NCBI GenBank assembly: GCA_037444665.1
Contig: JBBILZ010000021.1
Location: 1-39,975 of the forward strand
Source of the DNA: a candidate division WOR-3 bacterium
GTDB lineage: Bacteria > Hydrothermota > Tepidihabitantia > SM23-42 > JAOAFX01
Reading direction: 5' to 3'
Length of the DNA: 39,975 nt
Of the stretch, positions 227 through 18,417 are shown one piece after another. The notes below the pieces were generated by a model. The model did not search any database. It had not been told where the DNA came from and saw only the letters and a list, made by a program, of their open reading frames with translations. The translations under genes and the position numbers were made by a program. Every line of letters begins with the position of its first letter. The stretch's first letter is position 1.

Positions 227-285
227 TATAGCGTTCGGATTCAGCCGGACGAAAACGAATCGTCCATTTGAAAATGGACGCTACA
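227..285. repeat. GTAG-family REP-like inverted pair (REPIN-like)
   Basis: TATAGCGTTCGG-ATTCAG-CCGGACG on +, and TGTAGCGTCCATTTTCAAATGGACG on - (261-285): (G/A)TAG followed by a hairpin, in inverted orientation. Confidence 0.5.
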
Positions 286-294
286 ACCTTCCCT

Positions 295-545
295 GACCAT
301 AAGACCATCAGACTATACAACTATCTCAATCATATAACCATCCAACTATCCAACCATGAACATAATCCTCGCTATCGCTCGGATAAATCCGAAATCCGAA
401 TATCTAAATCCGAAACAATACCCTAAATCCGAATGCCCCAAATTCCAATACTTAAAACTATCTTAACTAGCCAACCATAAAACCATCCAACCATCCAACT
501 ATCTTAACCATCTAACTATAAAACTATCTTAACCATCTAACGACT
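295..545. repeat. Degenerate octamer tandem repeats (AAC(C/T)ATC(C/T)) interrupted by an AAATCCG-type block (~385-447)
   Basis: Repeated AACCATCC/AACTATCT units at ~295-360 and ~456-545; AAATCCGAAATCCGAATATCTAAATCCGAAAC in between. Confidence 0.75.
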
Positions 546-2757: not shown

Positions 2758-2773
2758 TTGCAATCCGTGGAAA

Positions 2774-2802
2774 AATATAGCATAAAATTAACATTTTGTC
2801 AA
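2774..2802 (-). promoter_or_regulatory. sigma70-type promoter of the regulator
   Basis: TTGACA-N17-TATATT with extended -10 TG on the minus strand. Confidence 0.65.
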
Positions 2803-2829
2803 TACTGATATAAATTGGCTAAATTCTAT

Positions 2830-2839
2830 TGAAATTTCA
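2830..2839. promoter_or_regulatory. Palindrome TGAAATTTCA, candidate operator (copy 1)
   Basis: Same palindrome at nearly the same offset in the paralogous intergenic region (6752-6761). Confidence 0.4.
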
Positions 2840-2911
2840 GTATTTTTAGGGATATAATCAGTGATTATTATACATAAATTACAATATAATATTTAAAGAA
2901 AGAAGGTTGAG

Positions 2912-3394
2912 ATGGGATTTCAAGGGAGAACAATATTTATAATAGTGATGGTGGGTGTCCTCCTTACATTGAATGCGAACGCCACTACATACGGACCTTA
3001 TTATGTTGAGTGCGACACTGCATTATATAAAGACACAACATTTCATATTCCTCTTACTAATACGGCGGTTGTGCTTTTTGGCACAATCCACAATTTTGAG
3101 CAACTTGGAGGTTCCAACAGAAAGGTTACTTCAATTGATTTTGCATTAACGAATGGTTATAGTGGGATTACTTATGATTTTTTGATTGATAGCATATATG
3201 TCATTGTGGAAAGATATAATGCCGATTTAGGCGACTGGCGGACTTATAGTTTTTGTAAAATGAGATTGCAGCTCCTAAATGTTTATAATAAAACATGCCG
3301 TAAATTTAAAGTAGAACCTGATTATCCACATACTGATAATATTGGGCGCCAGCGTTACAGAATTAGTTTTACAATTTTTGGTACCTATGAATAA
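2912..3394 (+). CDS. Secreted hypothetical protein
   Basis: AAGG RBS; signal peptide ending ANA; no family recognised. Confidence 0.7.
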   Translation: MGFQGRTIFIIVMVGVLLTLNANATTYGPYYVECDTALYKDTTFHIPLTNTAVVLFGTIHNFEQLGGSNRKVTSIDFALTNGYSGITYDFLIDSIYVIVERYNADLGDWRTYSFCKMRLQLLNVYNKTCRKFKVEPDYPHTDNIGRQRYRISFTIFGTYE

Positions 3395-3481
3395 AAGAAA
3401 TAATAATCCTAATAATAAAATGCACAATTAAATTTGGAGAGAAATGGCTTATAATAGAGACATTCGAAAAGGGAGGAATAA

Positions 3482-5128
3482 ATGCATATAATTTTGACAT
3501 TTCTAATAGTATTCCAAGAAATCACAGACAGCATTTTAGATAAAAAATCGGAAGCGATGGAAGAACAAAAAATGATTGAAGTCATTGTTCATATGAAAAA
3601 TCAACCAGATCTAACAAAATGCCCTGCCACATTCTCAAAAAATGATAAAATAAATTATCTCAAAGAGTTCGTGCGCCTGGACCAGAAAAGCTTAATAGAT
3701 TATTTAGCTGATTTTGCGGAACAGATAGCAGAACTTCGTTCCTACTGGATTTTCAATGGTTTATACCTGAAGACTACAAAAGATGTTATCGACAAAATCG
3801 TCACTCGGAAAGATATCGCCTACATAACTTTTGACCATAAAATCAAATTAGACCAAGTTAGATTCTCTAAATTCAATCCGCTTAGAACATATGGTTATAA
3901 TATTCATATAATTAAAGCTGATTCATGCTGGCAAGAAGGTTATGATGGTTACGGCATAATTATTGGCAATATTGACTCGGGTGTTGATACTACGCATCCA
4001 GCATTAAGAGGTAAGTGGCTTCCTGGTGGTTGGTATGATGCTGTAAATGGACATCCAGGTCCTTATGATGACCATGGGCACGGTACTTTTACAATGGGTA
4101 TCATATGTGGCGGAGATGGTAATGGGCCCTTTATTGATGATATAGGCGTGGCACCCGGGGTAAAATTTATTGTTGCCAAAGCCTTTGATTCTCTCGGGAC
4201 TGCACCATATTCTGCTATTCATAGTTGTCTGCAATGGTTTGCTACTCAGAGTGCGAGAGTCATTAATAATCCTTACAATGAAGGAGAAACTACCTCCCTT
4301 GAGTTTTGGAATGATTGTCTGAATTTACGGAATTTGGGAATTTTTCTCGTTTTTAAGGGTGGTGCTATAAGCACCGGAGAAATGAGAACTCCGGGTAATT
4401 TTCCAACAGTAATTGGAATTGGTGCTACAGACAGTTTGGATGATATAACATGGTATTCGGGCCATGGTCCAGCACCCAATCAGAATCCTTGGAACGATCC
4501 TTTATATTGGTATCGACCTGACTGGAATTTATTAAAACCTGATATCGTTGCGCCTGGACAAAATATAAGATCTTCATGGCCAGGTGGTGGTTATGAATTT
4601 TCAAATGGAACATCCTGGGCAGCAGCACATGTTACTGGGGCTTGTGCAATTTTGCTCCAGAAAGATTCAACATTGACCCCATCAGATTTGTATAATACAT
4701 TGCTTGATAATGCTGATACTCCAACCCAGGGGGGGCCTTATCCAAATAATAATTATGGTTGGGGGCGACTAAATATCTACTCTGCATTGCATTCATTAGG
4801 CGTGAATGGAAAAAAGGCTGTTGAAAGACCTTGGTTTCAATTATTCATTTTTCCCAATCCTTTCTGTAAAAATCTTACAATTGAATTTAAACCTGGCGAG
4901 GAAACCAAGAAACAAGCATCAGCCGTCAGGTTAACGATTTACGATGCTTCTGGCAGAGTGGTGAGACTATGGGGCAATAAATTTGCCTTAGAGGGAATAA
5001 AGCAGGGTGGAAAAATCAGCTGGGATGGCACAGATAATTCAAAGAATAAATTGCCGGCGGGTGTCTATTTTGTTGAACTCTTTACGCATGGTGGAAAAAT
5101 ATTGAAAAAAGTTATTTTAGTCAAATAG
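3482..5128 (+). CDS. S8 (subtilisin) family peptidase with propeptide and T9SS/FlgD-like C-terminal domain
   Basis: IDSG, HGHGTF, GTSWA motifs; C-terminal PNPF...IYDASGRVV...WDG...LPAGVYF...KKVILVK; GGAGG RBS. Confidence 0.9.
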   Translation: MHIILTFLIVFQEITDSILDKKSEAMEEQKMIEVIVHMKNQPDLTKCPATFSKNDKINYLKEFVRLDQKSLIDYLADFAEQIAELRSYWIFNGLYLKTTKDVIDKIVTRKDIAYITFDHKIKLDQVRFSKFNPLRTYGYNIHIIKADSCWQEGYDGYGIIIGNIDSGVDTTHPALRGKWLPGGWYDAVNGHPGPYDDHGHGTFTMGIICGGDGNGPFIDDIGVAPGVKFIVAKAFDSLGTAPYSAIHSCLQWFATQSARVINNPYNEGETTSLEFWNDCLNLRNLGIFLVFKGGAISTGEMRTPGNFPTVIGIGATDSLDDITWYSGHGPAPNQNPWNDPLYWYRPDWNLLKPDIVAPGQNIRSSWPGGGYEFSNGTSWAAAHVTGACAILLQKDSTLTPSDLYNTLLDNADTPTQGGPYPNNNYGWGRLNIYSALHSLGVNGKKAVERPWFQLFIFPNPFCKNLTIEFKPGEETKKQASAVRLTIYDASGRVVRLWGNKFALEGIKQGGKISWDGTDNSKNKLPAGVYFVELFTHGGKILKKVILVK

Positions 5129-5141
5129 CAATAATTAATTT

Positions 5142-6626
5142 ATGAAAATCAAAAAAGATGTTATTCATTACGTAATACGGTGCCTGTTTCTTATCATAAC
5201 ATCATCCTTTGCCCAAGCACCTGATACACTATGGACGCGAACATATGGTGGCTATTATCAGGAATACGGATATTCAGTTAAACAAACTACTGATGGTGGT
5301 TTTATAACAGTTGGCAGTACAAAGACTTATGGCAATGGTGGCTACGATATCTGGTTATTGAAACTCAACGGAAACGGTGATACACTCTGGACAAAAACCT
5401 ATGGTGGACAATATGATGAAGTCGGTTATTCGGTTATAATAAATTCTGACGGTGATTATATAATTGCAGGTAGAAAAAATAATTATCCGTTGACTTACGA
5501 TGATTTCTGGCTGTTGAAAATAAATCCAAGTGGCGACACTATTTGGACACGAAGTTATGGTGGTAATCACAATGACTATGCGCGCTCAGTTCAACAAACT
5601 TCGGACGGAGGATATATAATTGCCGGCACTACCCGTTCTTTTGGTCAAGGTATTCCTGCTTATTCGAATATTTATCTCGTAAAAACAGATGCGAACGGTG
5701 ATACGATATGGACCAGAGTTTATGGAGAGGATGGACTCGTTGATGATGCTGCATATGCTGTTATACAAACATCTGATAATGGATTTCTCGTATGTGGCTA
5801 CACAGGAATTAGCACCCAATATGATATCTATCTTATAAGAACAGATGCTACTGGCAATATTATTTGGAAAAAAATATACGGAGGCACAGGTGAGGAAGTT
5901 GGCGCTTCAGTATTAGAAAACAATGGAGCATATGTTGTCGCAGGTTCTACAAATTCATACGGTCCACATCCGAGTAATTTTTATCTTCTAAAATTGGATA
6001 TGAATGGAGACACTATCTGGACAAAAGTATATGATGGTGGCAGTGATGACCACTGTCACTCCGTTAAAAAAACTTTTGATGGAGGGTATATAATGGTGGG
6101 CTTTACCTACCAATATGACAGTGATGTTTTTCTTATTAGAACCGATTCAATGGGTAATGCGATTTGGAGTAAAGTATACCCCCGGATAAACTACGGAGAT
6201 GAAGCCAACGAAATCCAATTAACCAGTGATGGTGGTTATATTATTGTAGGATATACATATTATTTTTACTCAAATTGGGCACGGGCATACGAGCAGCTTT
6301 ATCTTATGAGGATTGAACCGGAAACTGGCATTGAAGAATACGAGACATCCGATGAATTTATGCCGCTTTCTGCTATCCGCATAATTCCTAATCCCTTTAT
6401 AAAAAATGTGATTTTTGAATATTACTTACCTAATGTGACATTAGTTAACATAGGGGTTTATAATATTTCTGGTCAAAAGGTAGCAGAGATAATTAATAGA
6501 ATTGAACAAGAAGGTTTGCACAGGTTGTTTTGGGATGGTTTTGATAGTCACCATAATGAACTCCCTGCCGGTGTATATTTTGTTGAATTCAATGGTTTAT
6601 TACAAAAAATAATAAAGTTAAAATAA
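5142..6626 (+). CDS. Secreted beta-propeller repeat protein with T9SS/FlgD-like C-terminal domain
   Basis: About 7 repeats of GDTxWT(R/K)xYGG...QTxDGGYIIxG; signal peptide; PNPF...LPAGVYF tail. Confidence 0.85.
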   Translation: MKIKKDVIHYVIRCLFLIITSSFAQAPDTLWTRTYGGYYQEYGYSVKQTTDGGFITVGSTKTYGNGGYDIWLLKLNGNGDTLWTKTYGGQYDEVGYSVIINSDGDYIIAGRKNNYPLTYDDFWLLKINPSGDTIWTRSYGGNHNDYARSVQQTSDGGYIIAGTTRSFGQGIPAYSNIYLVKTDANGDTIWTRVYGEDGLVDDAAYAVIQTSDNGFLVCGYTGISTQYDIYLIRTDATGNIIWKKIYGGTGEEVGASVLENNGAYVVAGSTNSYGPHPSNFYLLKLDMNGDTIWTKVYDGGSDDHCHSVKKTFDGGYIMVGFTYQYDSDVFLIRTDSMGNAIWSKVYPRINYGDEANEIQLTSDGGYIIVGYTYYFYSNWARAYEQLYLMRIEPETGIEEYETSDEFMPLSAIRIIPNPFIKNVIFEYYLPNVTLVNIGVYNISGQKVAEIINRIEQEGLHRLFWDGFDSHHNELPAGVYFVEFNGLLQKIIKLK

Positions 6627-6678
6627 AGGGTATTTATATAGAAGAATTCTCCGTAAGTATGGATTTTTAGGGTATGCT

Positions 6679-6727
6679 ATTTGCAATCCGTGGAAAAATA
6701 TAGCATAAAATTAACATTTTGTCAATA
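6679..6727. repeat. Exact 49-bp copy of 2756-2804 (orphan copy of the regulator promoter)
   Basis: ATTTGCAATCCGTGGAAAAATATAGCATAAAATTAACATTTTGTCAATA is identical at both loci. Confidence 0.95.
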
Positions 6728-6837
6728 GCAATAAATAATGGTTATAATCAATGAAATTTCATGGAATTTTAGTGCATAATTATACTGATATATAGCATAA
6801 TTTTTATTATAATATATATGTTGAAAGGAGGTATGCT

Positions 6838-9699
6838 ATGTGGTCAGTCTTAGGTCTTGTTGCGGTTCTGGCATCGCCCCAGATTCAGGGAAAGTTCACT
6901 GATGAACTTACACAACAACTGATAAAGGCAAAGCCAGACCAGAAGGTCACCTGTATTGTGATGATGAAAGAGACTTATCCATACGCAGAGATGGAGTCCT
7001 ATCCCATAAAGGAGCGGATCAGGACATACCAACGAATAGCACAGCAGTCTCAAAGACCCCTTATTGAATGGCTGAGCATAAGGGTGCAGGATGCAAAGAT
7101 AAAAGGTCAATTCTGGGTGATGAATTGTGTTGTCTTAGAGGCAAAGCCATCTATCATCATGGATATAGCCCAACGCGAAGATGTTGCCTGGATTTCCCAT
7201 AATGGTGAAGTTCATATCATTGCCGAGCCTGACAATACGAATGCGCCAACTTCGCGAGCATTTATCTGGAATCTTCGGCGCATTATGGCTGACTCCTGTT
7301 GGGCTGCAGGTTTTACTGGATAGAATATTATTATTGGCGAGACCGATACTGGTGTTGATTACACCCATCCAGTATTACAGGGAAAATGGGCGGGTTACTG
7401 GAAGGTTGCTGATGGTTTACCACCTTCTACGACGCCTTATGATGACCATGGCCATGGCACACATTGTATGGGCACGATATTGGGTGGTGATGGACCTGGT
7501 TCAATGCCAGATAGTATGGATGTGGGTGTAGCACCAGGTGCAAAATTTGTTGCCGCAAAGGTGCTCAATTCCGGAGGCTCGGGGTCTTATGACCAATGTC
7601 TGCAAGGACTCCAGTATATGGCGGATTTAAAAGATTCTGTTGATATCAAGGCAGTCTCAAATTCCTGGGGTGGGTCAAATGGCGCAGATACATTCTTCTA
7701 TCCGATAATGCGCACCTATAAATCCATTGACATCCTTCCGGTCTTTGCAAATGGTAATAGTGGGCCGAATCCTAACACAGTGGGCTGTCCAGGGAGTTAT
7801 TCCAATGTCCTGGGTGTTGGTGCGACGACTCCTGATGATACTGCAGCCAGTTTTTCTTCACGGGGTCCAGCACCAAACCAACCACCATTTAATGACCCTT
7901 CTACCTGGTTCCGTTCTGACTGGAACTTAACAAAGCCCCAAATCTCTGCTCCTGGCACCCAGATTCGTTCCTGTCTTCCCAATAATGGTTGGGGAACCTG
8001 GCAGGGAACATCCATGGCAACCCCTCATGTTGCGGGTGCGGTTGCGATTCTTTGTAGTAAGAATCCAACACTGACACCAACCCAGTTGTATAATATTCTC
8101 CTTGATAATGTTGATAGACTGAGTGGTGTTACCTATCCTAATAATACCTATGGCTGGGGAAGATTGAATGTCTGGACATCTTTACAAAATACACCCACTG
8201 TGAACCAACCCTGGCTTATGATAATAAATTATGCAATCACTGACCCACCACCAGGTGGCAATGGCAATGGCAGGGTTGACCCTGGTGAGACAGCGAGGAT
8301 GACGATAACAATTAAGAATGTCGGAGGCGTAATGGGATATAATTGCACCGGAATATTGAATTCATTTGATAATTATGTCACGGTGACCAATGGCACCCAT
8401 AACTTTGGCAATCTTGCATCCCAGGCCGAGGCTTCAAATAGCAGTAATCCATTCGTGTTCAGTGCACATAATCTCACACCCCAGGGTCATATTGCAAGCA
8501 TCGGTGTTGTGCTCAGTGCCAGTGGTGGTTCTAACCCCAACTTTATAGATACTGTCTTTTATTCTATCCAGATTGGTACACCTCCCGCACCTTATACAAT
8601 TTACGAAGATGATTTTGAGTATGGGAGTGGCATTGACAGTTTCCTGTATTACTGGGATAAGACCGGCAACTGGAACTGGTCTACAACCCAATCCCATTCA
8701 CCAACGCATTCAGCATATAGTGGCACTGTTTCCAATACGATAATGGCCCTAACTTTGAAAAATAGTATTAATCTCACCCCATTCACAAATCCCCGATTAA
8801 ACTTCTGGCATAAGTATCGCTTTGACCAGGGAATATTCCTGGATAGTGCGGTCATCTCAATCTCAACGAACGGTGGCACTACCTGGCAGAGGTTGTGGAA
8901 ATACGACTGGATGACCGGTGATACAATTCCCTGGAAAGAAGAAGATATTTCTCTGAGTTCTTATATAAGTAGTAATGTCAAAATCCGATTTGCAGTGGAT
9001 GCCTATACATTCTTTAATGATTATGCGGACTGGTGGATTGATGATTTTAAGATTACGGTTCCGACCGATAACGAGCCACCATATTTTACCAATACTACAG
9101 ATTGGCAAGATACAAGTTATACTGGACCATTCCCGGTGCAATCAACGATCACTGACGCCAGTGGTGTGGATTCAGCATACCTCTATTACCGGATAAATAC
9201 TGGTGCCTGGCAGAGGTTGGTAATGCAGCATCAGGGTAGTAATATTTACAGTGCAACGATTCCTTCCCAGCCCTTATACACCACTGTTGATTATTATCTC
9301 TGGGCAAGGGATAAGTGGATAACACCGAATTCAGGTTGTGACCCGGTTGGTGCACCCCAGGATGGTTATTATTCATTCATTATCCGACCAGTGGGCGTGG
9401 TAGAGGAACTGGATATTGTAAAGCCGTTCAGTTTTGCAGTGCGCTCTCCAAATCCATTAAGAGGACAATTGAAGATGGCATTCAATCTGCCTGTTACTAC
9501 AAAGGTAAGGTTACAGGTCTTTGATATCCTTGGCAGGTGTATAAAGGTGCTTGCTGATGGTGAGATGGATGCGGGTCATTATGAGGTTATCTGGAGTGGT
9601 AAAGATGAGAGTGGCAGAATCGCTGCAGATGGTGTCTATTTCTTAAAATTCTCAGCAGGCGATTATGTTCTATTGAAGAAGATTGTATTAATAAGATAG
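6838..9699 (+). pseudogene. S8 peptidase with propeptide, extra C-terminal domains and T9SS/FlgD-like tail, interrupted by one in-frame TAG (7321-7323)
   Basis: ORFs 6838..7323 and 7468..9699 share a frame; reading through gives GFTG*NIIIGETDTG...HGHGTHCMG...FANGNSG...GTSMATPHV; GGAGG RBS at 6827-6831. Confidence 0.85.
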
Positions 9700-9733
9700 T
9701 TTGGACATTAGAGAATCCCCCTTTCAATGACAA

Positions 9734-9768
9734 ATCTCAGGAGGATGGCAAATCCATCCTCCTGAGAT
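9734..9768 (+). terminator. Strong hairpin, probable intrinsic terminator
   Basis: ATCTCAGGAGGATGG-CAAAT-CCATCCTCCTGAGAT, 15-bp perfect stem after the protease stop; weak U-tail. Confidence 0.6.
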
Positions 9769-9848
9769 ACTTTACTGAGGAAGACCTTAATCGGGGTTTG
9801 AGTCTTCAGAGGGATTTACAAATGAACTAAATGATACAAACTCATCCC

Positions 9849-9876
9849 TTGACTTTACAAGTATCACTGATATAAT
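9849..9876 (+). promoter_or_regulatory. sigma70-type promoter
   Basis: TTGACT-N16-TATAAT. Confidence 0.7.
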
Positions 9877-9891
9877 AAATCAGAGGTGGAG

Positions 9892-11391
9892 ATGAAAGGG
9901 TTTGTCTATTTTCTGTCTTCTATCTTCTATCATCTAACTTCTCTCTTTTTTACTTTTTACTTGCTGCTTCCTACTTTCGCATACGCCCAGACTGGTTGGG
10001 GGCCGGATGTGCGGTTGACATATTATATAAGAGGAACTGCGTATCTTCCTAAGATTGCTGTTAGTGGAGACACAATTCATGTTGTCTGGTATGAAGATAT
10101 AAATAACCAGTATCTTGTTATGTATAAGCGCTCTACAGATCGAGGAGAAACCTGGACGCCGGATACGATTCTGTCTCCAGTGCCTCCTGGGGCTTCTAAG
10201 ATGCCGGATATTGCAGTGAGTGGTTCAGTGGTGCATGTTGCTTGGACTGAGGAGGTGGGGGATTCAATTCTTTATACAAGAAGCACCAATAGTGGAAGAG
10301 AGTGGGACATTCCCAAAACATTGTCCTCAGCAGGATTTGTTGTGAATGTCAGTGTTTCCGGTGATTCTGTCATTGTATATTGAGGTACAACAACAGCATC
10401 CTATCTGAGTATGAGTACTGATGCTGGACTTTCCTGGTTACCGGCACAACGGATTCCTAAAGAAAGAGCATCTATGAGTGATGACATAGCTATATGTTTA
10501 CCGTATTTACATCTGGCTTATCAAGATGTCAGTACTGGACCACCCGTTGAGATTTATTACCAGCGGAGTAGCGATGTTGGTCAGACCTGGTCTTTGCCGC
10601 TGATGGTTTCAGAAGATGACATCTGGGGTGGTCAAAGGGCATCTATCGCTGTGGATAATGATGCAAATATTTATATTGACTGGTGGGATTATAAAAACTC
10701 ACCATATGCCTGGACCGGGAGTATCTTTTTAAGAAAAGGAGTTAATAATGGCACTAATTGGGATACAATTCAAAATTTAACAACTCTTTATCGAGCCAAA
10801 ATATCTGACATTGCGGTTCAGGGCAACAATGTCCATATTGTCTGGATGGACCAGCGGGATTATCCTGGTTCGCCTTTTGATAGTTTTGAGATATATTATC
10901 GGTATAGTTCAGACAGGGGAAATACCTGGGGTCCTGAGACCAGACTTACTTATGACCCTCATCAATCTACTGATCCCAGATTAGCCGCGGATTCTAATTT
11001 TGTTTATCTGGTTTGGACAGACGACCGTGATCTTGACTCTTCATTCTATCTCAATGAGATCTATTTCAAGCGCGGGTATATTGAGGCCGATATTAAATTG
11101 GAAAATGATATTTTATCAGCGCCTCAGACTTTTCAAGTTTTCCCAAGTATTTCTTGGGGCACGGTGAGATGTTATTGTGATCTTATAAAATCTCAAGTTT
11201 GGTCATTGGATGTTTTTGATATTATGGGCAGAAAAGTTTGGCATTATACTGGTTCTGGGAAGAGGGTGGATTTGGTATGGGGTTATAAAGACAAAAGTGG
11301 GAAGGAGGTGAGAAATGGGGTCTATTTTATAATGCTACGAACAGGGAGAAATAGTTATCAGCGAAAAGTTATTTTTTTGAAAGGAGGATAA
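9892..11391 (+). pseudogene. Secreted BNR/Asp-box (sialidase-like fold) propeller protein with C-terminal sorting domain, interrupted by in-frame TGA (10381-10383)
   Basis: ORFs 9886..10383 and 10411..11391 share a frame; RSTDxGxTW Asp boxes; the stop falls at the W of the repeated 'HVxW' motif. Start GTG 9886 or ATG 9892. Confidence 0.8.
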
Positions 11392-12847
11392 TCATGAAGG
11401 GATTAGTTTTCCTATCAATCACAGTTGGAGTTTTTGCGTTTGGTCAGGATTGACAACTTGTGAATCCTCTGCCTATAGGAAGGGCAGATGATATTGCGAT
11501 TGGTCAAAAAATTACTGGTGAACAGCGTCTCTACATTGCCGACCGGTGTTCCTGGCCGTTTAAAAGCACAAACGGCGGGGTGAGTTGGGATTCATTGTTT
11601 GCTAACCCCGATGCAGCTAACCCCATTGCCGTTATTACCGATCCTGACAATGCGGCTCGTGTTTGGATTGCCCGGGAAGGCTACGGGGTGTTATATAGTA
11701 GCAACGCAGGCGCAACATGGGAATGGCGCATTGAAGGTTTGACCAACTTGAATGTTGCCACCCTGGAGATGGCGCCGGACAATCCTAATGTCATCTTTGC
11801 CGGGTGTTCTTATTCAGGAAATCCCCAACCCAATGTATTCAAGACCACCAATGGTGGTTTAACCTGGGGTGCGACTCCAAGTTACCCGCCCAGCAGTAGT
11901 GTTTACGATATCGAAACTCCGGGTGCGCCTTATGATATTCTTCTTGCAGGTTGTTATGGTGGCATCTACCGCAGCACTGATGGAGGTAACAGCTGGTTGT
12001 TGAAGTATTCTGGTATTGGCTGGGATATTGCCCGTGACCCGATTAATGATGGCCATTTTTATGCAGCAGTGGCTATTTCTGGTGAGGGAAGAGTGCTCAG
12101 GAGTACTGATTTTGGAAATTCCTGGCAGGAGGTGTTTACTCTTCCTGCTGGAGAAGTTCCTAAAAAAATAGCCATAAGTCCAGAGCCCAACTGGCGGATT
12201 TATGTTGCTACGGAAAATGCGGGTATTTACTGGAAAGGTCCCGATCCTGATGTCTGGCATCTTGATGATTCAAACCGGGGTATTTATGATAAACTGGCGA
12301 CTTCAATTGCCGTAGACCCCAACAATCCCAATTTTCTTGTCTTTAGCACAGCAACGGCACTGTATCGCCACACAAATTTTCCCACAAATTCCTGGGAATT
12401 TTTGACTTCTGGTTTTCGTGCCATCCATCCCTCAGCATTGAGCACTTCTTTGCCTGTTGGCATATTTGCCAAGGCCGTAAGACCAGGAGTAAATCCTGGA
12501 GGTGGTTCTTCTTCCCATGGCATAAGTGTATATCACAGTACCGATAACGGACAAAGTTGGAAAATCATCCACTCGGCTTACTCCTATGAAGGTGAGATTC
12601 GTGGTCCAAAAACCTTGGTGAGCCATCCATTAAATGGTGGTCAAATTTATCTGGCATTTGAAAATGGGATGGATTTTCACACTATCCATAGTACCACGGA
12701 TTGTGGTCTTACCTGGTTTGTGTGGGGATATGGAAGTGGTTGTCTTCGTCAATCAATTGCTGTTGATCAATATACGGCGATTGCCTATGAGGTTGATGAT
12801 ACCCAGTATCCGGTGAATCAAAGAGATCCACAGGTGCTCGTAACGAA

Positions 12848-12879
12848 TAATTACGGTCAAGACTGGACTCAGATTGGTC
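12848..12879. repeat. Exact 32-bp direct repeat, copy 1 (copy 2 at 15099-15130)
   Basis: TAATTACGGTCAAGACTGGACTCAGATTGGTC encodes NYGQDWTQIG in both genes. Confidence 0.95.
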
Positions 12880-12907
12880 TTGACTTTTTAGATATCAGTA
12901 GTATAAT
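12880..12907 (+). promoter_or_regulatory. sigma70-type promoter
   Basis: TTGACT-N16-TATAAT, similar to the 9849 promoter. Confidence 0.7.
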
Positions 12908-12919
12908 TTATACAAAGCA

Positions 12920-14437
12920 ATGAAACAATTTATTATCAGATTTTTATTTATTCTTCTTTTAAATCTATTATTATCTTTTTTTAATTTATTTTCTATTATC
13001 TCTTATCAGCCATCTGTCATCTGTTATCATTCCCTTTTTGCTGATACTCTGGTCTATTGGGAGCCGGAGCAGAGGTTGACCTACGACAGTATTCCCCAGC
13101 TTAACTGTCGGGTCTGGGCTTATGATTCGTTTGTGCATATCCTGGTGAATTATGATTATAGTCCAATAGTTTACCTGAGGAGCTTTGATTACGGCTCCAC
13201 TTGGTTCGATCCAATTCCGCTCAGCATTGAATCTGCTACTTCGAAGAATGACTTAACCCAGCAGGATTCGGTGGTTTATTTTACCTGGAGTGAGTATCGG
13301 GAGGGACCACCATACATCACTCAGGTTGATACTCAATATGCTTTTTTTAGACGAAGCAATGATTATGGAGCATCGCTTGATAGTCTTGTTTTCCTAGGTA
13401 AAGGTGTGCATGTGAGTATTGATGCGCGGGTTGACTCAATATTTATCACACCTGTGGTGGGAGATCCACCACCGACAATTGGTTCGTATCTGATCAGCAG
13501 TTATGATGGCGGTTCAAATTGGTCTAATTACTTGCCAATAATTGATTCCTCGGGAACGCCAAGTATTTTTTATAGAAATGGTGTTCTTCATTTCACTGCT
13601 TTAGAGAATTTCCGAATACTTTACACCCGTTCCACTGACCTTGGCAATTCCTGGTCAACGCCAACGGTTATCACTGCGCCCAATACGGTTTTGCCCAAAA
13701 AACCGGTGTTTGCCTTGGGACCCAATGAAAATGTTTATATTGCCTGGACTGATAATAAGTATTCAGGCATGATGCAATTTGATGATGTGTTATTTAGAAA
13801 GAGCACTGACGATGGATTGACCTGGGGACCCGAGCAGAGATTGACCCCTGATTCTCATTGTGATGTGGCTTCTATTGATATGGTCAGTCAGGATAGTATG
13901 ATATTTATTGTGTGGAATTATAATGGAATAGGATATCCTGCACCGTGCTCGTTATTTTTTCTGGCAAGCACTGATTGTGGAGAAAGTTGGAGACCGAGAG
14001 AGGGAATAGCAGGTGGAGAGGGATATGCACTTAATGATGCTAATGTGGCAGTTTTTCAAAATTTTGTATATGTAGTTTGGACTGATTCTCGTCCTCTGCG
14101 AGCACCACCTGAACTCTACATCCGTCGTGGGACTCTTACGCCCGTGGGGATTAAAGAGAGGACGCAAGTTTCTTGCAATACTGTAGATATTTATCCTAAT
14201 CCGTTCAGCAACAAAGTGGATATCAGATTACAGATAGCAGATAGGAGTCAAGAAATAAATATTAAGATGTATGATGTGAGTGGCAAGGAGGTGGTGTTTT
14301 TGAGACATAGAGACAAAGAGATAGGGAGACAGGGAGAGATGAAAATAGATACCAGTGACCTGCCCTGTGGGGTTTATTTTGTGGAAGTAAGGGCAGGTGA
14401 TGAGCGTATAATCAAAAAGGTGATAAAAATAAGATAA
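12920..14437 (+). CDS. Secreted BNR/Asp-box propeller protein with T9SS-type-A-like C-terminal domain (paralog of 9892..11391)
   Basis: WEPEQRLT, RSxDxGxxW boxes, VYVVWTD; YPNPF...GVYFV...KKVIKIR. Confidence 0.85.
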   Translation: MKQFIIRFLFILLLNLLLSFFNLFSIISYQPSVICYHSLFADTLVYWEPEQRLTYDSIPQLNCRVWAYDSFVHILVNYDYSPIVYLRSFDYGSTWFDPIPLSIESATSKNDLTQQDSVVYFTWSEYREGPPYITQVDTQYAFFRRSNDYGASLDSLVFLGKGVHVSIDARVDSIFITPVVGDPPPTIGSYLISSYDGGSNWSNYLPIIDSSGTPSIFYRNGVLHFTALENFRILYTRSTDLGNSWSTPTVITAPNTVLPKKPVFALGPNENVYIAWTDNKYSGMMQFDDVLFRKSTDDGLTWGPEQRLTPDSHCDVASIDMVSQDSMIFIVWNYNGIGYPAPCSLFFLASTDCGESWRPREGIAGGEGYALNDANVAVFQNFVYVVWTDSRPLRAPPELYIRRGTLTPVGIKERTQVSCNTVDIYPNPFSNKVDIRLQIADRSQEINIKMYDVSGKEVVFLRHRDKEIGRQGEMKIDTSDLPCGVYFVEVRAGDERIIKKVIKIR

Positions 14438-14451
14438 AAAGGAGGTTAAAA

Positions 14452-17400
14452 ATGCTCAGGAAGTGTGTATTTTTAATAATGGGGCTGTGTGCCCTAACAG
14501 TAGCAGACAGTTGGTCATTTTATGGTGGACCCTGGTGTGCGAAGAATATGGTGGACATTGCGGTGGGTTTAAAGAATGGGTCGCTGGTTATCTATGGTGT
14601 AAATTTTGATTATTCGCTGGTGAAGAGCACGGATGAAGGGCAATCGTGGATTACGCTTTTACAAGATGTGCCGATTTCGGACAGGAAGGTTAGGTGTGTT
14701 ACCTGTGACCCGTGTAATGCGGATTTGGTTTATATTGGCTTACCCAGGGGTCAGGGTCGGTTATTTGAGGGGATTCAGTGTAGCACTGATGGAGGAAATA
14801 CCTGGGTTGAGAGGAATGCTGGGCTTCCAGCGAGTTTCACACCGAGTGCCATTGCGATGCGTGATGCCCAGCATATTGTGCTGGGAATGGACCCGCTAAG
14901 TGCAAATGACCATACTATTTATTATTGGAATGTTACTCAATGGTCACAAGCAATATTTCCAAATCCTAATTACAAGGGCTTTCGTGTCGCGGATTTGAAA
15001 TGGGACCCGAGGAGTGGATATGAAAGGTATATCTATGCATCCTCTGACAAGGTCGCTTCCGGTGGCAATCCCCATTATATTGGTGTTTATCAGAGTTCTA
15101 ATTACGGTCAAGACTGGACTCAGATTGGTCACGCTGACCCATCCCAGCCCTCAGGATATATGGAACGTCCTGAGGCGCTCTCTGTTTGCTGTGGTTTGAA
15201 TGGCTACATTTATGCCGGATATCGTCCCGAAGCAGTCAGCCACACTGACGGCGGAGTAATGAGAACAACTGATGGAGGTTTAACCTGGACCAGAGTTTTG
15301 AATATGGAAAACTTCCCGGTTAATGATGTGCTGGGCGACCCGATTAACCCCCAAAAAGTCTATGCAGCATTTGGTTGTAGTGATTATTCCTATGAAGGTA
15401 AGGGCATATATCGTAACACAAATGCAGGTGAACTTGGATTATGGAGTCCATTCAACGAAGATTTGACTGACCTTTACACAAATGTGCTTGTGACATTCAA
15501 AGTGAACACTCAAGACTTTTTATTTCTTGGAACAGATAATAGTTTCTATGTGAGGAATCTTACTACACCAACAAACTGGATTGAGCGAGTGAAAGGTATG
15601 CACAAGCCAAAGGTCATTGCGGTTGAGCCAAGAATTCCAAACTTCTTTTCATTTTCCGACAAGGCAAATTATGCAAGTGAGAATAACGGTATAGATTGGA
15701 CAACTCGCTCAACAGTGGCGAGAATTTCAGAAAATCTTTCAGCCGAAGTCCATCCGAGTTTAAATGGTGAAATGCTCAAGTGGACAAAGGTATTTTTGCC
15801 TGAGATAGAATACGACATCTATCATAGCACCGATGGTGGGTTTATGTGGTATTCACGATATCGTGAGAGATACACCGATTTACCATTCATTCCCAATTTT
15901 GCGTATAGCTATTATCCTGGAGATCCCCATAAGGTCTATACATTTACAAATCAGTATTACGGATACTATCGATTTTTGCTAAGCAGTTCAAATTTTGGCA
16001 CTACTTGGACTGAGCATAATACACCGTATGTTGAACCAGGTTATTACATAACTTCGGTTGCTTGCGATCCTAACTATGATCAAGAAGATCATATCTATAT
16101 TTCAGGTTCGCACAAGACATATGAAAGTAGAGATGGTGGAAATACCTGGATAAATAGAACGATGATAAATGAATCCTACGAATGGGCAACAATTATCTTT
16201 AAACCAGAAGGGGGGAGCGATCTTAGCTATAATCTTTTGCATGCCTGGGCACCTCTGTCAGCAAGTGCACCACGATATTCTAAGACAACTAATTTTGGCG
16301 CAACTTGGCTCTACACTTCTGAGATTGGAGACCACCAGTTTGGTTTGAGTTTTATTGATCCTGAAGAACCAAGCGTTGTTTACACTGCTCCCTTTAACCC
16401 TAATACAAATTTTAGCGATTTTTATTTCTCAGTAGATTATTGCCATGTTTGGATACAGGATAATCGTGGGCTGCCTCCTACACGAATCTGGGATTTAGAG
16501 GTCGACCCAAATTCCCCTCAGTATCTCTATGCAGGAACAGATGAAGGTGTTTACTATTGGACACCACCGTTTATTAGCAAGCATCTGGTCAGCAGTTCGT
16601 CTGAGGCGACCTTTGCCAACAATGGCAGAAAGTTACTACATGTGTATGGGACTGATGAAAAGTGGGTGACCTATGAGAGTGGCGGGGTTATCTATGCGGT
16701 CCATTCTACCGATGCCGGTGTCACCTGGTCAAGGAAGATGGAGATTGGTAAAGGTAAGTATCCAGCAATTGCGATTCGGGATTTACCTGAATATCCACCC
16801 TGTGTGGTCTATCTAAAAGATAATGACCAGGATACCATCTACTTTGCCCGGTATATTGGTGAGAATAAATGGTCTGCTCCTGCGCCGATTGTTGTTTCAC
16901 AATCAGGCATTAATTTTGGGCCACCTTCTTTTGTGATTGGCGACTACAATATCGGTCATCTTGTCTTTTCTGAACATAGCGTTTGTTATTATGTAAATTT
17001 CAATGTCTATGATCCTTCTAATCCCAGCACACCAGAGTTAATCGGCCCGGGCATCAATCCTTGCATCGGTTTTATGGGTGATAGTCAATATCCCCGATTG
17101 CATGTAGTCTTAGAACACAATGGTGTGATTTACTATTCAGCACGGATTTCTGAAAACAACTGGACAAGGGAAATTGTCTCTACAGATGAATACATTACGA
17201 TTTCTAATTCTCAACACCCTTCGCTTATAGTTGAGGGCGCTGTTGTTTATGTGGTCTGGGATGGAGAACTAAATAATAACAGAGATATCTTCTGGAGGCA
17301 TCTGACCTATATTGGAGAAGAATCTATATGGAGCTGGATATGGCCGGTGTGCCAGACAGCAGAGCCTTCCAGTTATCCGGTATTGACCACGGGCTTTTTC

Positions 17401-18417
17401 TGTTCCTGGGTTGAAGAGGTGGACACAGATTATGAGATCTATTATGCCCGTTATGACCCGATGTTATGGACCTGGCGTGACCAGACCAATCTCAGTAATA
17501 GTCCGGACAAGAATTCATGTTATTCTCATCTGGCATACAAACAGACTGAGCAGGGCACTGAGGTCTACTTCATCTGGACCGAGAATTCAAATCCGCCTTA
17601 TGATATAAAATTTACGAGTATCACAATCGGCGGTGGTGGTAGTAGCCCTGAACTATTGGGTGGTCTACCATTATATATTGCCAAAGGTGGTGAAGAAGTG
17701 CCATCACCATTCAATGTGAGGCGTGAGGGTTATGTGGAATATGGTAGTGCACCTTATCAGAAGGTGGATATTGATAATCAGTATATTAAATATCAATTTG
17801 CTGGTCTAAATCCGGAAGATGATTATGCTCTTACTGCCTGTCTTTATCAGCATGGTTATAGTAATCTGCCATTGATTGTGAGGATTGATAATCAAGGAGT
17901 GGGTGTGGTCAATCTGCCCCCTGATACTTTGATAATGCGTCGGCATCAAGTGCCCAGGGGTCTTTATGCAGACGGTGTTATTAAAATAAAGGTCTCTGGC
18001 AATCCTGCGATCAGTGCGCTGTTGGTGCTATACAGGTATGAGAGAAAAAGAGCAGGCGGTGGTCCACAGGATAAAGAGACGATGCCGATGGGTGCATTGA
18101 AGCCTGAATTAGAGGTTTATCCGAATCCATTCACCACGAAATTGGATATCAGATATGAGATACCAGATACGAGATACGAAATAACGAATGAACACATATC
18201 TGACATCTCATATCTCACATCAGTCAGTTTAAAAATCTATGATGCGACTGGCAGATTGGTTAAAGATTTTTCCAGTTTAACGTTTAACGTTGAACGTTCA
18301 ACGGTTCTTTGGGATGGTTCAGACGACTCTGGCCGCAAACTTCCTGCCGGGGTTTACTTTGTGAGACTGGAAAGTGAAGGGTTCAAACAAGTAGAGAAGG
18401 TAATTCTTTTAAGATAA
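14452..18417 (+). CDS. Large secreted multi-propeller (BNR/VPS10-like) protein with T9SS/FlgD-like C-terminal domain
   Basis: 1321 aa; GGAGG RBS; signal peptide; many STDGGxTW boxes; YPNPF...WDGSDDSGRKLPAGVYF...EKVILLR. Confidence 0.88.
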   Translation: MLRKCVFLIMGLCALTVADSWSFYGGPWCAKNMVDIAVGLKNGSLVIYGVNFDYSLVKSTDEGQSWITLLQDVPISDRKVRCVTCDPCNADLVYIGLPRGQGRLFEGIQCSTDGGNTWVERNAGLPASFTPSAIAMRDAQHIVLGMDPLSANDHTIYYWNVTQWSQAIFPNPNYKGFRVADLKWDPRSGYERYIYASSDKVASGGNPHYIGVYQSSNYGQDWTQIGHADPSQPSGYMERPEALSVCCGLNGYIYAGYRPEAVSHTDGGVMRTTDGGLTWTRVLNMENFPVNDVLGDPINPQKVYAAFGCSDYSYEGKGIYRNTNAGELGLWSPFNEDLTDLYTNVLVTFKVNTQDFLFLGTDNSFYVRNLTTPTNWIERVKGMHKPKVIAVEPRIPNFFSFSDKANYASENNGIDWTTRSTVARISENLSAEVHPSLNGEMLKWTKVFLPEIEYDIYHSTDGGFMWYSRYRERYTDLPFIPNFAYSYYPGDPHKVYTFTNQYYGYYRFLLSSSNFGTTWTEHNTPYVEPGYYITSVACDPNYDQEDHIYISGSHKTYESRDGGNTWINRTMINESYEWATIIFKPEGGSDLSYNLLHAWAPLSASAPRYSKTTNFGATWLYTSEIGDHQFGLSFIDPEEPSVVYTAPFNPNTNFSDFYFSVDYCHVWIQDNRGLPPTRIWDLEVDPNSPQYLYAGTDEGVYYWTPPFISKHLVSSSSEATFANNGRKLLHVYGTDEKWVTYESGGVIYAVHSTDAGVTWSRKMEIGKGKYPAIAIRDLPEYPPCVVYLKDNDQDTIYFARYIGENKWSAPAPIVVSQSGINFGPPSFVIGDYNIGHLVFSEHSVCYYVNFNVYDPSNPSTPELIGPGINPCIGFMGDSQYPRLHVVLEHNGVIYYSARISENNWTREIVSTDEYITISNSQHPSLIVEGAVVYVVWDGELNNNRDIFWRHLTYIGEESIWSWIWPVCQTAEPSSYPVLTTGFFCSWVEEVDTDYEIYYARYDPMLWTWRDQTNLSNSPDKNSCYSHLAYKQTEQGTEVYFIWTENSNPPYDIKFTSITIGGGGSSPELLGGLPLYIAKGGEEVPSPFNVRREGYVEYGSAPYQKVDIDNQYIKYQFAGLNPEDDYALTACLYQHGYSNLPLIVRIDNQGVGVVNLPPDTLIMRRHQVPRGLYADGVIKIKVSGNPAISALLVLYRYERKRAGGGPQDKETMPMGALKPELEVYPNPFTTKLDIRYEIPDTRYEITNEHISDISYLTSVSLKIYDATGRLVKDFSSLTFNVERSTVLWDGSDDSGRKLPAGVYFVRLESEGFKQVEKVILLR

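Follow-up and report, generated by a model that had tools for sequence, protein, structure and literature searches.

Interrupted reading frames in bacteria are known from several systems. Nonsense-mutation pseudogenes of accessory genes contain one derived stop, the frame being intact apart from it, with a sense codon in relatives and no machinery able to decode the stop. Selenoprotein genes combine an in-frame UGA with a SECIS hairpin and SelB. In phase-variable (contingency) genes, surface or secreted proteins are turned off early in the frame by simple-sequence repeats or invertible segments. UGA may also be read by tRNA-Trp: near-cognate reading is described in the part of the literature considered here, with a 4-bp anticodon stem as the point of comparison (PMC13092985). 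As for mRNA editing by TadA, the sections of PMC5630033 drawn on here place all native sites of E. coli in the motif TACG, the edited A being second in this motif within a tRNA-Arg-like loop and recoding being mostly from Tyr to Cys.

Here, we analysed a window of 39,975 nucleotides (i.e. the whole stretch of DNA under study) from a 120-contig metagenome-assembled genome of a candidate division WOR-3 bacterium. An earlier note on this DNA had drawn attention to three consecutive secreted-protein genes, each with one in-frame stop, and had considered inactivation, a reversible switch and conditional recoding. We conclude that these genes are very probably three ordinary recent pseudogenes of one secreted module, each hit by a single stop-making point mutation.

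Interrupted genes and ancestral codons

The TAG and the two TGAs were recovered in frame at the positions first reported (Table 1), and no second stop follows in any of the three frames, which stay open to 9699, 11391 and 12923, respectively. Single homologous proteins span the interruptions (953 aa for gene 1, 510 aa for gene 2 and 960 aa for gene 3), in accordance with the stop-to-stop ORF tables.

Table 1. Coordinates of the genes, stops and other features discussed (window positions unless a contig is named)
Feature	Position	Strand	Basis or remark
Gene 1 (953 codons), subtilisin-type (S8) protease carrying a C-terminal domain for type IX secretion	6838..9699	+	Pfam
TAG, codon 161 of gene 1	7321..7323	+	in frame; read in GFTG*NIIIG
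Gene 2 (501 codons), secreted protein with signal peptide, BNR repeats of sialidase-like fold and a tail for type IX secretion	9886..11391	+	Pfam
TGA, codon 166 of gene 2	10381..10383	+	in frame; SVIVY*GTT; invariant repeat Trp
Gene 3 (509 codons), BNR/sortilin-like beta-propeller protein	11394..12923	+	Pfam Sortilin-Vps10, E 1.1e-15
TGA, codon 20 of gene 3	11451..11453	+	in frame; FGQD*QLV
Hairpin 17 nt 3' of the gene 3 TGA	11468..11488	+	MFE -20.6 kcal/mol; z -4.0; equalled by 0/200 shuffles
32-nt exact repeat	12848..12879 and 15099-15130 (intact paralog)	+	blastn-short, 32/32 identity
Intact second BNR pair (505-aa BNR protein, then 1321-aa BNR/sortilin protein), both with secretion tail	12920..18417	+	
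tRNA-SeC(tca)	C13:37078-37171		aragorn
selB, adjoining tRNA-Sec	C13:37180-39054		351.8 bits vs cut-off 242

In gene 1, Pfam places Peptidase_S8 (PF00082) at residues 161-441 (E 4.5e-50), with FlgD_ig (28.2 bits, above its cut-off) and Por_Secre_tail at the C-terminus; with both the S8 catalytic and the C-terminal sorting domains present, the product is predicted to be a Peptidase S8 cargo of type IX secretion. Its TAG directly precedes the catalytic Asp (GETDTG), and the next in-frame start (7468) lies 3' of the catalytic His. Intact relatives of 953 aa exist (P0127, 91% identity; P0246; P0247), and none of the other full-length orthologs listed for the genus has an internal stop. The interrupted site is a Gln position: 31 of 44 homologs have Q there and none has W. 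In the sister species G008, which shares 93.4% nucleotide identity with window positions 249-9465, the codon at 7321 is CAG in a 40-nt context that is otherwise identical. Exact look-ups of possible partial products returned no match, which argues neither for nor against the stop.

The Pfam matches of gene 2 to BNR_2 and CHU_C, like those to the C-terminal domain, fall under the curated cut-offs; its homologs bear PF13088 and PF18962. Intact orthologs are a protein of G009 (510 aa, 62-64% identity) and P0121 (510 aa, 88%), and a 326-aa ORF downstream of the TGA is on record from NCBI and from Logan. Gene 3 has a strong Shine-Dalgarno sequence (GGAGG upstream of the ATG), and its TGA comes immediately after the signal peptide. 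At this site G009 reads AAQTWQLVNPLP (TGG) and P0125 reads FGQDWQLVNPLP.

That both TGAs occupy Trp positions had been proposed from internal repeats; it now stands on orthologs, with W in 14/14 homologs of gene 2 and in G009 and P0125 for gene 3. G009 has W at both TGA sites, and the codon is TGG in an ortholog of gene 2 and, in G009, of gene 3. A roughly 90-93% identical strain (X4) encodes full-length proteins with Gln, Trp and Trp at the three sites (P0127, 953 aa; P0121, 510 aa; P0125, 960 aa). In the ortholog alignments the stops do not recur, and because each of the three sites is a sense codon in the closest relatives, sequence comparison indicates that the stops are derived and lineage-specific, arising from CAG>TAG once and TGG>TGA twice.

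The G:C>A:T transitions put forward in the earlier note are therefore backed site by site as codon changes, whereas their description as coordinated found no support: these are three independent point changes. No excess of changes towards A/T is seen when the region is compared with the X4 strain (A>G 63 and T>C 77 vs G>A 76 and C>T 84). The location of the TGAs at Trp sites carries little weight, since TGG and CGA are the only codons that a transition can turn into TGA, and TGG outnumbers CGA by 19 vs 4 in gene 2 and by 17 vs 0 in gene 3. TGA at Trp sites is the expected outcome of transitions in such Trp-rich genes.

Module, genome background and further lesions

Judging from gene content and order, the three genes form a putative conserved secreted-protein module, in which two genes for BNR-repeat propeller proteins come after one for an S8 protease, with export of the products by the type IX secretion pathway. 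Genes 1 and 2 are also adjacent in G001:C10, and genes 2 and 3 in G009:C24 and G006:C60. The flanking paralogs are open, as had been claimed. Both members of the second BNR pair match Por_Secre_tail in Pfam (E 1.2e-15 and 7.4e-08); P0125 aligns to 14455-17334 (41% identity) and P0121 to 13052-14398 (24%). Intact protease paralogs also adjoin the broken module.

If about 10 such stop hits are spread over an assumed total of 2300 genes, the expected number of runs of three neighbouring broken genes is ~1.4e-4. In a comparison with 367 kb of G008 (315 ORFs, ~107,000 codons), gene 1 had the sole internal stop in a confident gene. A partial genome-wide screen revealed further broken genes, so that the load as such is ordinary; the adjacency of three is non-random and points to the decay of one conserved module. 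In-frame stops at C39:20563 and C37:10727 proved to be compensated local frame shifts when set against G008 orthologs of 97% identity; one lies in A-runs, a possible error signature.

The dN/dS of gene 1 against G008 (0.36 and 0.24) exceeds the genome median (0.10, n=250) yet resembles that of the intact neighbouring secreted-protein genes (0.22-0.32), and gives no direct demonstration of relaxed selection. Together with the clean frames, these neighbour-like values are compatible with a very recent event, without proving one. The G008 ortholog, for which the annotation gives a 669-aa fragment, is itself frameshifted by a 1-nt deletion outside any homopolymer run.

The genes had been described as otherwise retained. 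This is true of the frames after the stops, which are clean, but not of the end of gene 3, which stops at least about 465 codons short of its orthologs (open frames of 808-983 aa; 960 aa in P0125), so that the C-terminal part and the secretion tail are absent. A Pfam search of gene 3 gave no C-terminal sorting-domain match, and the missing part was not found elsewhere in the 120 contigs. The match to full-length orthologs ceases at ~12853, within the 32-nt repeat; the X4 contig begins to differ at 12853, Logan contigs from the source sample break at 12850-12877, and the loose end at the junction maps to C21:15131. Given this coincidence, the repeat is the site of a recombination or deletion, or possibly of an assembly join.

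Inactivation and its alternatives

For each of the three genes, the frame is homologous across the stop, relatives have a sense codon one substitution away, and decoding machinery fitting the stop is absent. Under the favoured reading as ordinary pseudogenes, each member of the module would have taken one point mutation in this lineage, with CAG>TAG affecting gene 1 and TGG>TGA the other two. Such early stops would abolish function, in gene 1 ahead of the catalytic Asp and His, in gene 2 one third into the propeller and in gene 3 just past the signal peptide, and downstream restarts would be without an export signal. UGA is somewhat leaky as a terminator, so the two TGA alleles may not be complete nulls. 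Presumably the module, or one of its members, was no longer needed and the remainder drifted; the intact copy of the BNR pair and the protease paralogs alongside may have rendered it dispensable. The truncation of gene 3 and the frameshift of gene 1 in the sister species fit such drift after disuse.

Each stop falls within the first third of its gene, and this early position (product-of-positions test, p ~0.06) hints at selection for loss over pure drift. A selected shut-down would have silenced the module early while the paralogs stayed on; the TGA alleles would leak a trickle of wild-type product via near-cognate reading by tRNA-Trp, and on and off alleles might coexist in the population as a rough polymorphism of expression. 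We consider this unlikely.

The early stops would also suit a population that holds on and off forms, of which the assembly took the off forms; loss, perhaps favoured in some cells, might save cost or evade something that recognises surface proteins. Such segregation is distinctly doubtful. The source sample is not clonal, as differences from the window occur in its Logan contigs at 9282, 9288, 11963 and 12357, and another sample of the study contains a related strain of ~95% identity (X2 record 12). The Logan contig spanning the TAG carries one difference from the window whose place is not listed. At both TGAs, however, the two assemblies of the sample agree: contig record 5 (9022-11675), from the probable source sample, covers both with only 2 differences (9282 and 9288), and single contigs cross all three stop sites unbroken. 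Because rare variants are lost from contigs, such evidence has little force either way. Direct reading of 7260-7400, 10330-10450 and 11370-11500 revealed no repeat tract, inverted repeat, invertible element or other device for reversible switching at the sites, and a point nonsense mutation reverts no faster than other point mutations.

Designed read-through would supply full-length proteins conditionally, with UGA decoded as Sec or Trp, UAG and UGA changed by A-to-I editing, or a suppressor at work; we regard it as very improbable, and the recoding or editing suggested in the earlier note as unsupported. The close relatives have TGG and CAG, so no stop is conserved. In genes 2 and 3, decoding of UGA as Trp would bring back the ancestral residue, and the genome holds tRNA-Sec beside selB as well as apparent secreted selenoproteins. 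A selenoprotein reading was nevertheless rejected: the TGAs align to Trp and never to Cys, have no redox motif and lie in none of the contexts of the genome's own Sec sites (UxxC, CU or HdrA motifs). An Rfam scan of 6700-13100 returned no matches, and among sequencing runs none of RNA was found to contain the stretch.

The stems after the stops had been set aside as common by chance. This applies to genes 1 and 2, where folding is no better than in shuffles (z -0.50 and +0.52, respectively), and not to gene 3, where the hairpin is strong. A hairpin also folds at the matching place in the G009 ortholog (CCUCUGCC..GGCAGGG), whose codon is TGG, and the gene 3 loop is not of the GGUC type seen at some of the genome's own Sec sites. 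This hairpin, which predates the TGA, is ancestral coding sequence and no recoding signal; moreover, gene 3 is truncated in addition.

The genetic code is standard, as had been stated: 1506 ORFs of at least 200 codons end in TAA (754), TGA (504) or TAG (248). With these counts and no adapted tRNA, reassignment of UGA to Trp or of UAG to sense was discarded. Of the genes for suppressor, pyl and sel functions sought, only tRNA-Sec and selB are present, and the sites do not fit them. None of the 49 tRNAs identified by aragorn is a suppressor, the sole stop-reading one being tRNA-Sec; neither a tRNA-Trp(UCA) nor a tRNA with a CUA anticodon was found in the genome. The only tRNA-Trp has the anticodon CCA and a normal 5-bp stem, not the 4-bp stem treated in the portion of PMC13092985 considered. 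Pyrrolysine decoding of UAG was likewise rejected, the best match to TIGR02367 for pylS scoring 36.8 bits against a cut-off of 178.15, with no CUA tRNA. The contexts of the stops (GATAGAAT, TTGAGGT and TTGACAA) contain no TACG, the motif given for TadA in the sections of PMC5630033 drawn on, and editing to Trp would fail to restore gene 1, where the TAG was ancestrally Gln.

Sequencing or consensus errors, which the 120-contig assembly and the compensated frame shifts (one within A-runs) could suggest, are highly improbable: Logan, an independent assembler, shows both TGAs on the probable source run at a word depth of ~18, NCBI and Logan both list the 326-aa product, the changes are substitutions and not indels, and clustering in three neighbouring genes is unexpected of errors.

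Comparison with known systems

The window provides a calibration case, in that an in-frame TGA at a Trp position resembles recoding yet is what a G>A transition is expected to leave behind; the question was settled quickly because the nearest relatives carry TGG and CAG. The run of broken neighbours points to loss of a conserved secreted-protein module in this lineage, a matter of local ecological interest for these uncultured bacteria.

With contingency genes the locus shares surface or secreted products turned off early in frame; unlike them, it shows plain substitutions in sequence that is non-repetitive on direct reading. TadA editing of the A could in principle make UAG or UGA a Trp codon, but no stop lies in the TACG reported in the consulted part of PMC5630033 and the TAG site was ancestrally Gln. 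The Trp positions of the TGAs recall UGA=Trp decoding, from which the genome differs in ending 504/1506 long ORFs with TGA, in its tRNA-Trp with CCA anticodon and 5-bp stem, and in the TGG of relatives. Selenoprotein genes are resembled in the in-frame TGA, in a host with tRNA-Sec and selB, in the hairpin after the gene 3 TGA and in the organism's other TGA-containing genes, several of them secreted. In contrast to such genes, the TGAs here align to Trp rather than Cys or Sec, are absent from close relatives and, in gene 2, have no hairpin.

With nonsense-mutation pseudogenes of accessory genes the locus shares one derived stop per otherwise intact frame, sense in relatives and no decoding machinery, with other lesions at the locus and in the sister species and paralogous back-ups nearby. 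It looks like routine gene decay and adds no new mechanism. What departs from the usual nonsense pseudogenes is the set of three independent hits in consecutive genes, rarer than the genome background, which would stem from the disuse of a single functional module.

Three interrupted genes and the ancestral codons at their stops

The window forms the first 39,975 bases of contig C21 in a genome of 2.54 Mb (120 contigs, 37.7% G+C, completeness score 99.5%), and most named relatives of its proteins bear the annotation candidate division WOR-3. On the + strand, at about 3.5-20.3 kb, lies a row of secreted-protein genes with type IX secretion tails; the tail family Por_Secre_tail gave 98 hits genome-wide. 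Three consecutive genes, hereafter genes 1 to 3, each contain one in-frame stop, exactly where an earlier note on this DNA had placed it. That note had also described the flanking paralogs as intact, and a second, old copy of the BNR pair is indeed unbroken at 12920-18417. Judged from the sequence, each of the three stops disables its gene: the product of gene 1 is left without its catalytic Asp and its catalytic His, as the first start after the TAG (7468) lies past the His, and translation restarting at 10411 (gene 2) or 11460 (gene 3) would give proteins that have no signal peptide.

The closest species genome compared (G008) shares 93.4% DNA identity with the window over 249-9465 and has CAG at the site of the gene 1 TAG, the surrounding 40 nt being otherwise identical; its contig reaches only the first ~250 nt of gene 2, and no gene 2 or gene 3 ortholog was matched in it at E<=1e-30. 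A related strain (X4), known solely from Logan contigs (5430 and 5293 nt) of a hot-spring metagenome, differs from the window at 289 positions over 6800-9752 and at 185 over 9997-12853. All three of its proteins are full length: P0127 (gene 1; 953 aa, 91% identity) reads GFTGQNIIIG at the TAG site, P0121 (gene 2; 510 aa) reads VIVYWGTT and P0125 (gene 3; 960 aa) reads FGQDWQLV at their TGA sites. Two more members of the P0127 cluster are unbroken and both have Q at the TAG position, and in another comparison genome, G009, the orthologs of genes 2 and 3 are unbroken, each having TGG where the window gene has TGA. Among 44 homologs of gene 1, the stop position is occupied by Q in 31, E in six, D in three, T, S, A or K in one each, and W in none. 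Both TGAs had been described as lying at Trp-like positions, and this is borne out by W in 14 of 14 gene 2 homologs and, for gene 3, in G009 and P0125.

Because relatives and homologs carry sense codons, the stops are derived and one transition away from the ancestor (CAG>TAG once, TGG>TGA twice). They are private to this lineage among all sequences compared; the alignment of orthologs, proposed earlier as a means of seeing whether the stops recur, gave sense codons in G008, the X4 strain and G009 and no recurrence. The same codons uphold the reading first put forward for these genes, recent inactivation by CAG>TAG and TGG>TGA, and on this comparative evidence the three genes are best described as ordinary recent pseudogenes. 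Recent nonsense pseudogenes are already a well-known kind of feature.

Further lesions and the background load of broken genes

Gene 3 stops after 509 codons and has no secretion tail, against open frames of 808-983 aa in homologs (960 aa in P0125), and no other place in the 120 contigs matches its missing C-terminal part. P0125 and the X4 contig cease to match gene 3 at about 12853, within 32 nt (12848-12879) of which an exact second copy lies at 15099-15130 in the intact paralog; the Logan contigs of the probable source sample also break at this repeat, and the junction reflects either recombination or a join made during assembly. The G008 ortholog of gene 1 has a 1-nt deletion of its own (GGTGGG-CAAATGG), outside a homopolymer run, and is annotated as a 669-aa fragment. 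Against G008, dN/dS of gene 1 is 0.36 in the first 293 codons and 0.24 in the rest, for a genome median of 0.10 (quartiles 0.074-0.153, n=250) and values of 0.32, 0.22 and 0.24 in its intact secreted-protein neighbours. Constraint on gene 1 thus seems loose, yet usual for the neighbourhood, which fits a recent event without proving relaxed selection.

The comparison with G008 covered 367 kb of about 2.2 Mb, i.e. 315 confident ORFs and about 107,000 aligned codons, and yielded 25 stop rows in the genome under study. Twelve fell in the first 13 or last 3 aligned positions, outside the likely coding part; ten lay in ORFs of 121-145 aa, presumed to be non-coding frames; two were a stop pair in a genome-specific insertion on contig C85; and one was the gene 1 TAG. 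Among the 230 ORFs with a length of at least 200 aa, two, both on contig C58, appear to be frameshifted.

A codon-score screen requiring at least 50 open codons on each side of the stop, and therefore not exhaustive, listed 187 stops between coding-looking frames with one filter setting and 105 with a slightly different one, and 40 of these were chosen by eye for a Pfam scan. Six were of selenocysteine (Sec) type, 27 were ordinary neighbouring genes or unclear, and seven, namely L048, L054, L065, L050, L051, C22:787 and C105:1893, were likely in-frame stops within one gene. The fourth secretion-tail gene (L048) has an ortholog in comparison genome G001 that is 80% identical, carries TGG and forms a single 1128-aa frame. 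The frame shifts at L054 and L065 span 9-14 nt (on C37, one A-run is longer by a base and the next shorter by one), and either genuine double indels or errors of the consensus may account for the stops there. For the lipase-like gene, Pfam matches only sequence that follows the stop; the N-terminal part, and with it the view that this is a single gene, is our own reading of the sequence. Since five genomes of the genus gave no match to the L050 and L051 genes at E<=1e-30, the contigs that carry them may belong to the accessory genome or be of foreign origin. Contig C120 differs from the rest of the genome in having translations rich in Ala, Arg and Pro; its 436-aa read-through frame matched no Pfam family, and it is possibly a contaminant. 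The contamination score of the genome is 2.67%.

The load of stop-broken genes is ordinary, roughly ten genes. With 10 broken genes among an assumed 2300, only about 1.4e-4 runs of three neighbours are expected, so the run of three broken neighbours is non-random.

Interrupted genes and Sec-type sites in the genome (C, contig; L, locus)
Feature	Position	Strand	Gene or protein	Stop, motif or lesion
Gene 1	window 6838-9699	+	S8 protease	TAG 7321, codon 161
Gene 2	window 9886-11391	+	BNR repeat protein	TGA 10381, codon 166
Gene 3	window 11394-12923	+	BNR/sortilin-like protein	TGA 11451, codon 20
L048	C3:33764		fourth secretion-tail gene	TGG>TGA, EAGT-stop-GMPEN
L054	C39:20563		GAF-HD-domain gene	in-frame stop; compensated local frame shift vs 97%-identical G008 ortholog
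L065	C37:10727		indolepyruvate-oxidoreductase-like gene	in-frame stop; compensated local frame shift vs 97%-identical G008 ortholog
	C22:787		sensor kinase	likely in-frame stop; homologs are single ORFs
L050	C32:1992		OMP decarboxylase (pyrF-type) gene	TAG within domain
L051	C98:3311		class-2 lipase-like gene	TGA between N-terminal HG motif and catalytic serine
	C105:1893			candidate in-frame stop, uncertain
	C85:4860-6653		567-aa frame in G008	31-codon insertion, two adjacent stops (GDIDTV-stop-stop-PISTSD)
	C58:2242-4003		single 575-aa frame in G008	pieces in different frames
	C58:6196-6824		single 201-aa frame in G008	pieces in different frames
L071	C18:36307		HdrA-like flavoprotein	DCTA-TGA-ILGPK
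L077	C3:76582		secreted protein, signal peptide	HTC-TGA-G
L078	C5:14659		secreted protein, signal peptide	NGC-TGA-P
L079	C3:48928		signal-peptide protein	G-TGA-GFC
L080	C13:44882		signal-peptide protein	G-TGA-SGC
L081	C85:6656		signal-peptide protein	G-TGA-PYC
tRNA-Sec/selB	C13:37078-39054		

Proposed loss of a module

The adjacency of protease and BNR genes recurs on contig C10 of G001, and that of the BNR pair on C24 of G009 and C60 of another comparison genome, G006. We infer that genes 1 to 3 form one conserved module that has gone out of use in this lineage. The module would have become dispensable, perhaps through cover by paralogs, and its members would then have decayed one by one. Alternatively, loss of the module may have been favoured by selection, given that each of the stops lies in the early part of its gene (p ~0.06). 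In G008 (C11; L011, 9914-14169), about 4.25 kb more DNA lies between genes 1 and 2 than at 9451-9897 of the window; this extra DNA includes the gene for another S8 protease (941 aa), which over its last ~90 residues shares 83% identity with the end of window gene 1. The shorter arrangement is common to the window and the X4 strain, which suggests that a tandem protease gene was gained or lost via recombination between similar 3' ends.

An off switch segregating in the population, the second option raised earlier, is unlikely. In the independent Logan assembly of the probable source sample, one contig (9022-11675) reproduces both TGAs and differs from the window at 9282 and 9288 only; the one over TAG 7321 has a single difference from the window, at a place not among the 40 differences, of 657, that were listed. 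The 326-aa downstream product of gene 2 is on record from both assembly sources. No RNA run was listed as containing the stretch. Exact look-ups of the 444-aa read-through form, the restart forms of 234 and 233 aa and the 72-aa gene 3 piece gave no match; partial products from short Logan contigs seem to go unrecorded, so these absences carry no weight either way.

Evidence against decoding of the stops

Conditional recoding or A-to-I editing, the remaining proposal of the earlier note, was rejected on the ancestral Gln and Trp codons, the lack of any suppressor tRNA or PylS, a canonical tRNA-Trp and stop contexts without TACG; were the TAG edited to a Trp codon, the ancestral Gln would still not be restored. 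TGA can arise by transition from TGG or CGA alone, and the long ORFs of the genome hold 6969 TGG against 2241 CGA (19 against 4 in gene 2, 17 against 0 in gene 3); a TGA that sits at a Trp position is in itself no sign of recoding. The shared G:C>A:T direction is likewise forced and uninformative, because every stop-making transition has it. A regional burst of such mutations was dropped, as transitions between the window and X4 are symmetric (A>G 63 and T>C 77 against G>A 76 and C>T 84), with no A/T-directed excess.

The genetic code is standard, as had been stated: the 1506 ORFs of at least 200 codons are terminated by TAA (754), TGA (504) and TAG (248). Aragorn detected 49 tRNAs, the sole stop-reading one being tRNA-Sec; selenocysteine had to be considered because selB adjoins it. 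The suggested search for suppressor tRNAs and pyl or sel genes yielded this pair, no suppressor tRNA and no PylS (best score 36.8 bits, cut-off 178). A 91-nt 'tRNA-Lys' (C19:29470-29560; anticodon ttt, 29.7% GC, poor stems), considered as an odd suppressor, is probably a false call. In the aragorn tmRNA at C25:28329-28683, the encoded tag peptide, AVTSARVLPGPGSDVIMGKTLSYPAFGFDRVF, is unusually long.

Rfam gave no match over 6700-13100 of the window. The short stems noted earlier after each stop hold for gene 3 (z -4.0) and not for gene 1 (z -0.50) or gene 2 (z +0.52), where there is no structure. The TGG ortholog in G009 folds a hairpin at the same place as the strong one that follows the gene 3 TGA; the hairpin is a feature of the coding sequence for the conserved PLP-GRA.

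Six TGAs elsewhere in the genome resemble real Sec sites (one HdrA-type, two Cys-TGA, three UxxC). That of L071, which we take to be the known Sec/Cys position of HdrA, fits the tRNA-Sec/selB pair. L077 and L078 encode paralogs with the same GGCGAAGGUCUUCGCC hairpin 17 nt downstream of each TGA; no Pfam family was found for either protein, and their features suggest extracellular selenoproteins in which Cys and Sec form a pair. L079-L081 have the TGA in a U-x-x-C motif, with hairpins downstream; two of the three match Omp28, one of these also having a type IX secretion tail, and they are likely secreted thiol-oxidoreductase-type selenoproteins.

These features can be set against known systems. 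A tRNA-Trp reported to read UGA has a 4-bp anticodon stem (PMC13092985), whereas the tRNA-Trp of this genome (anticodon CCA) has 5 bp. Native mRNA editing sites of E. coli TadA are all reported to lie within TACG (PMC5630033), whereas the stop contexts of the window are GATAGAAT, TTGAGGT and TTGACAA, none of them TACG. Finally, the genome's own Sec-type sites sit in HdrA, Cys-TGA or UxxC motifs, whereas the TGAs of the window align with Trp, outside any redox motif.
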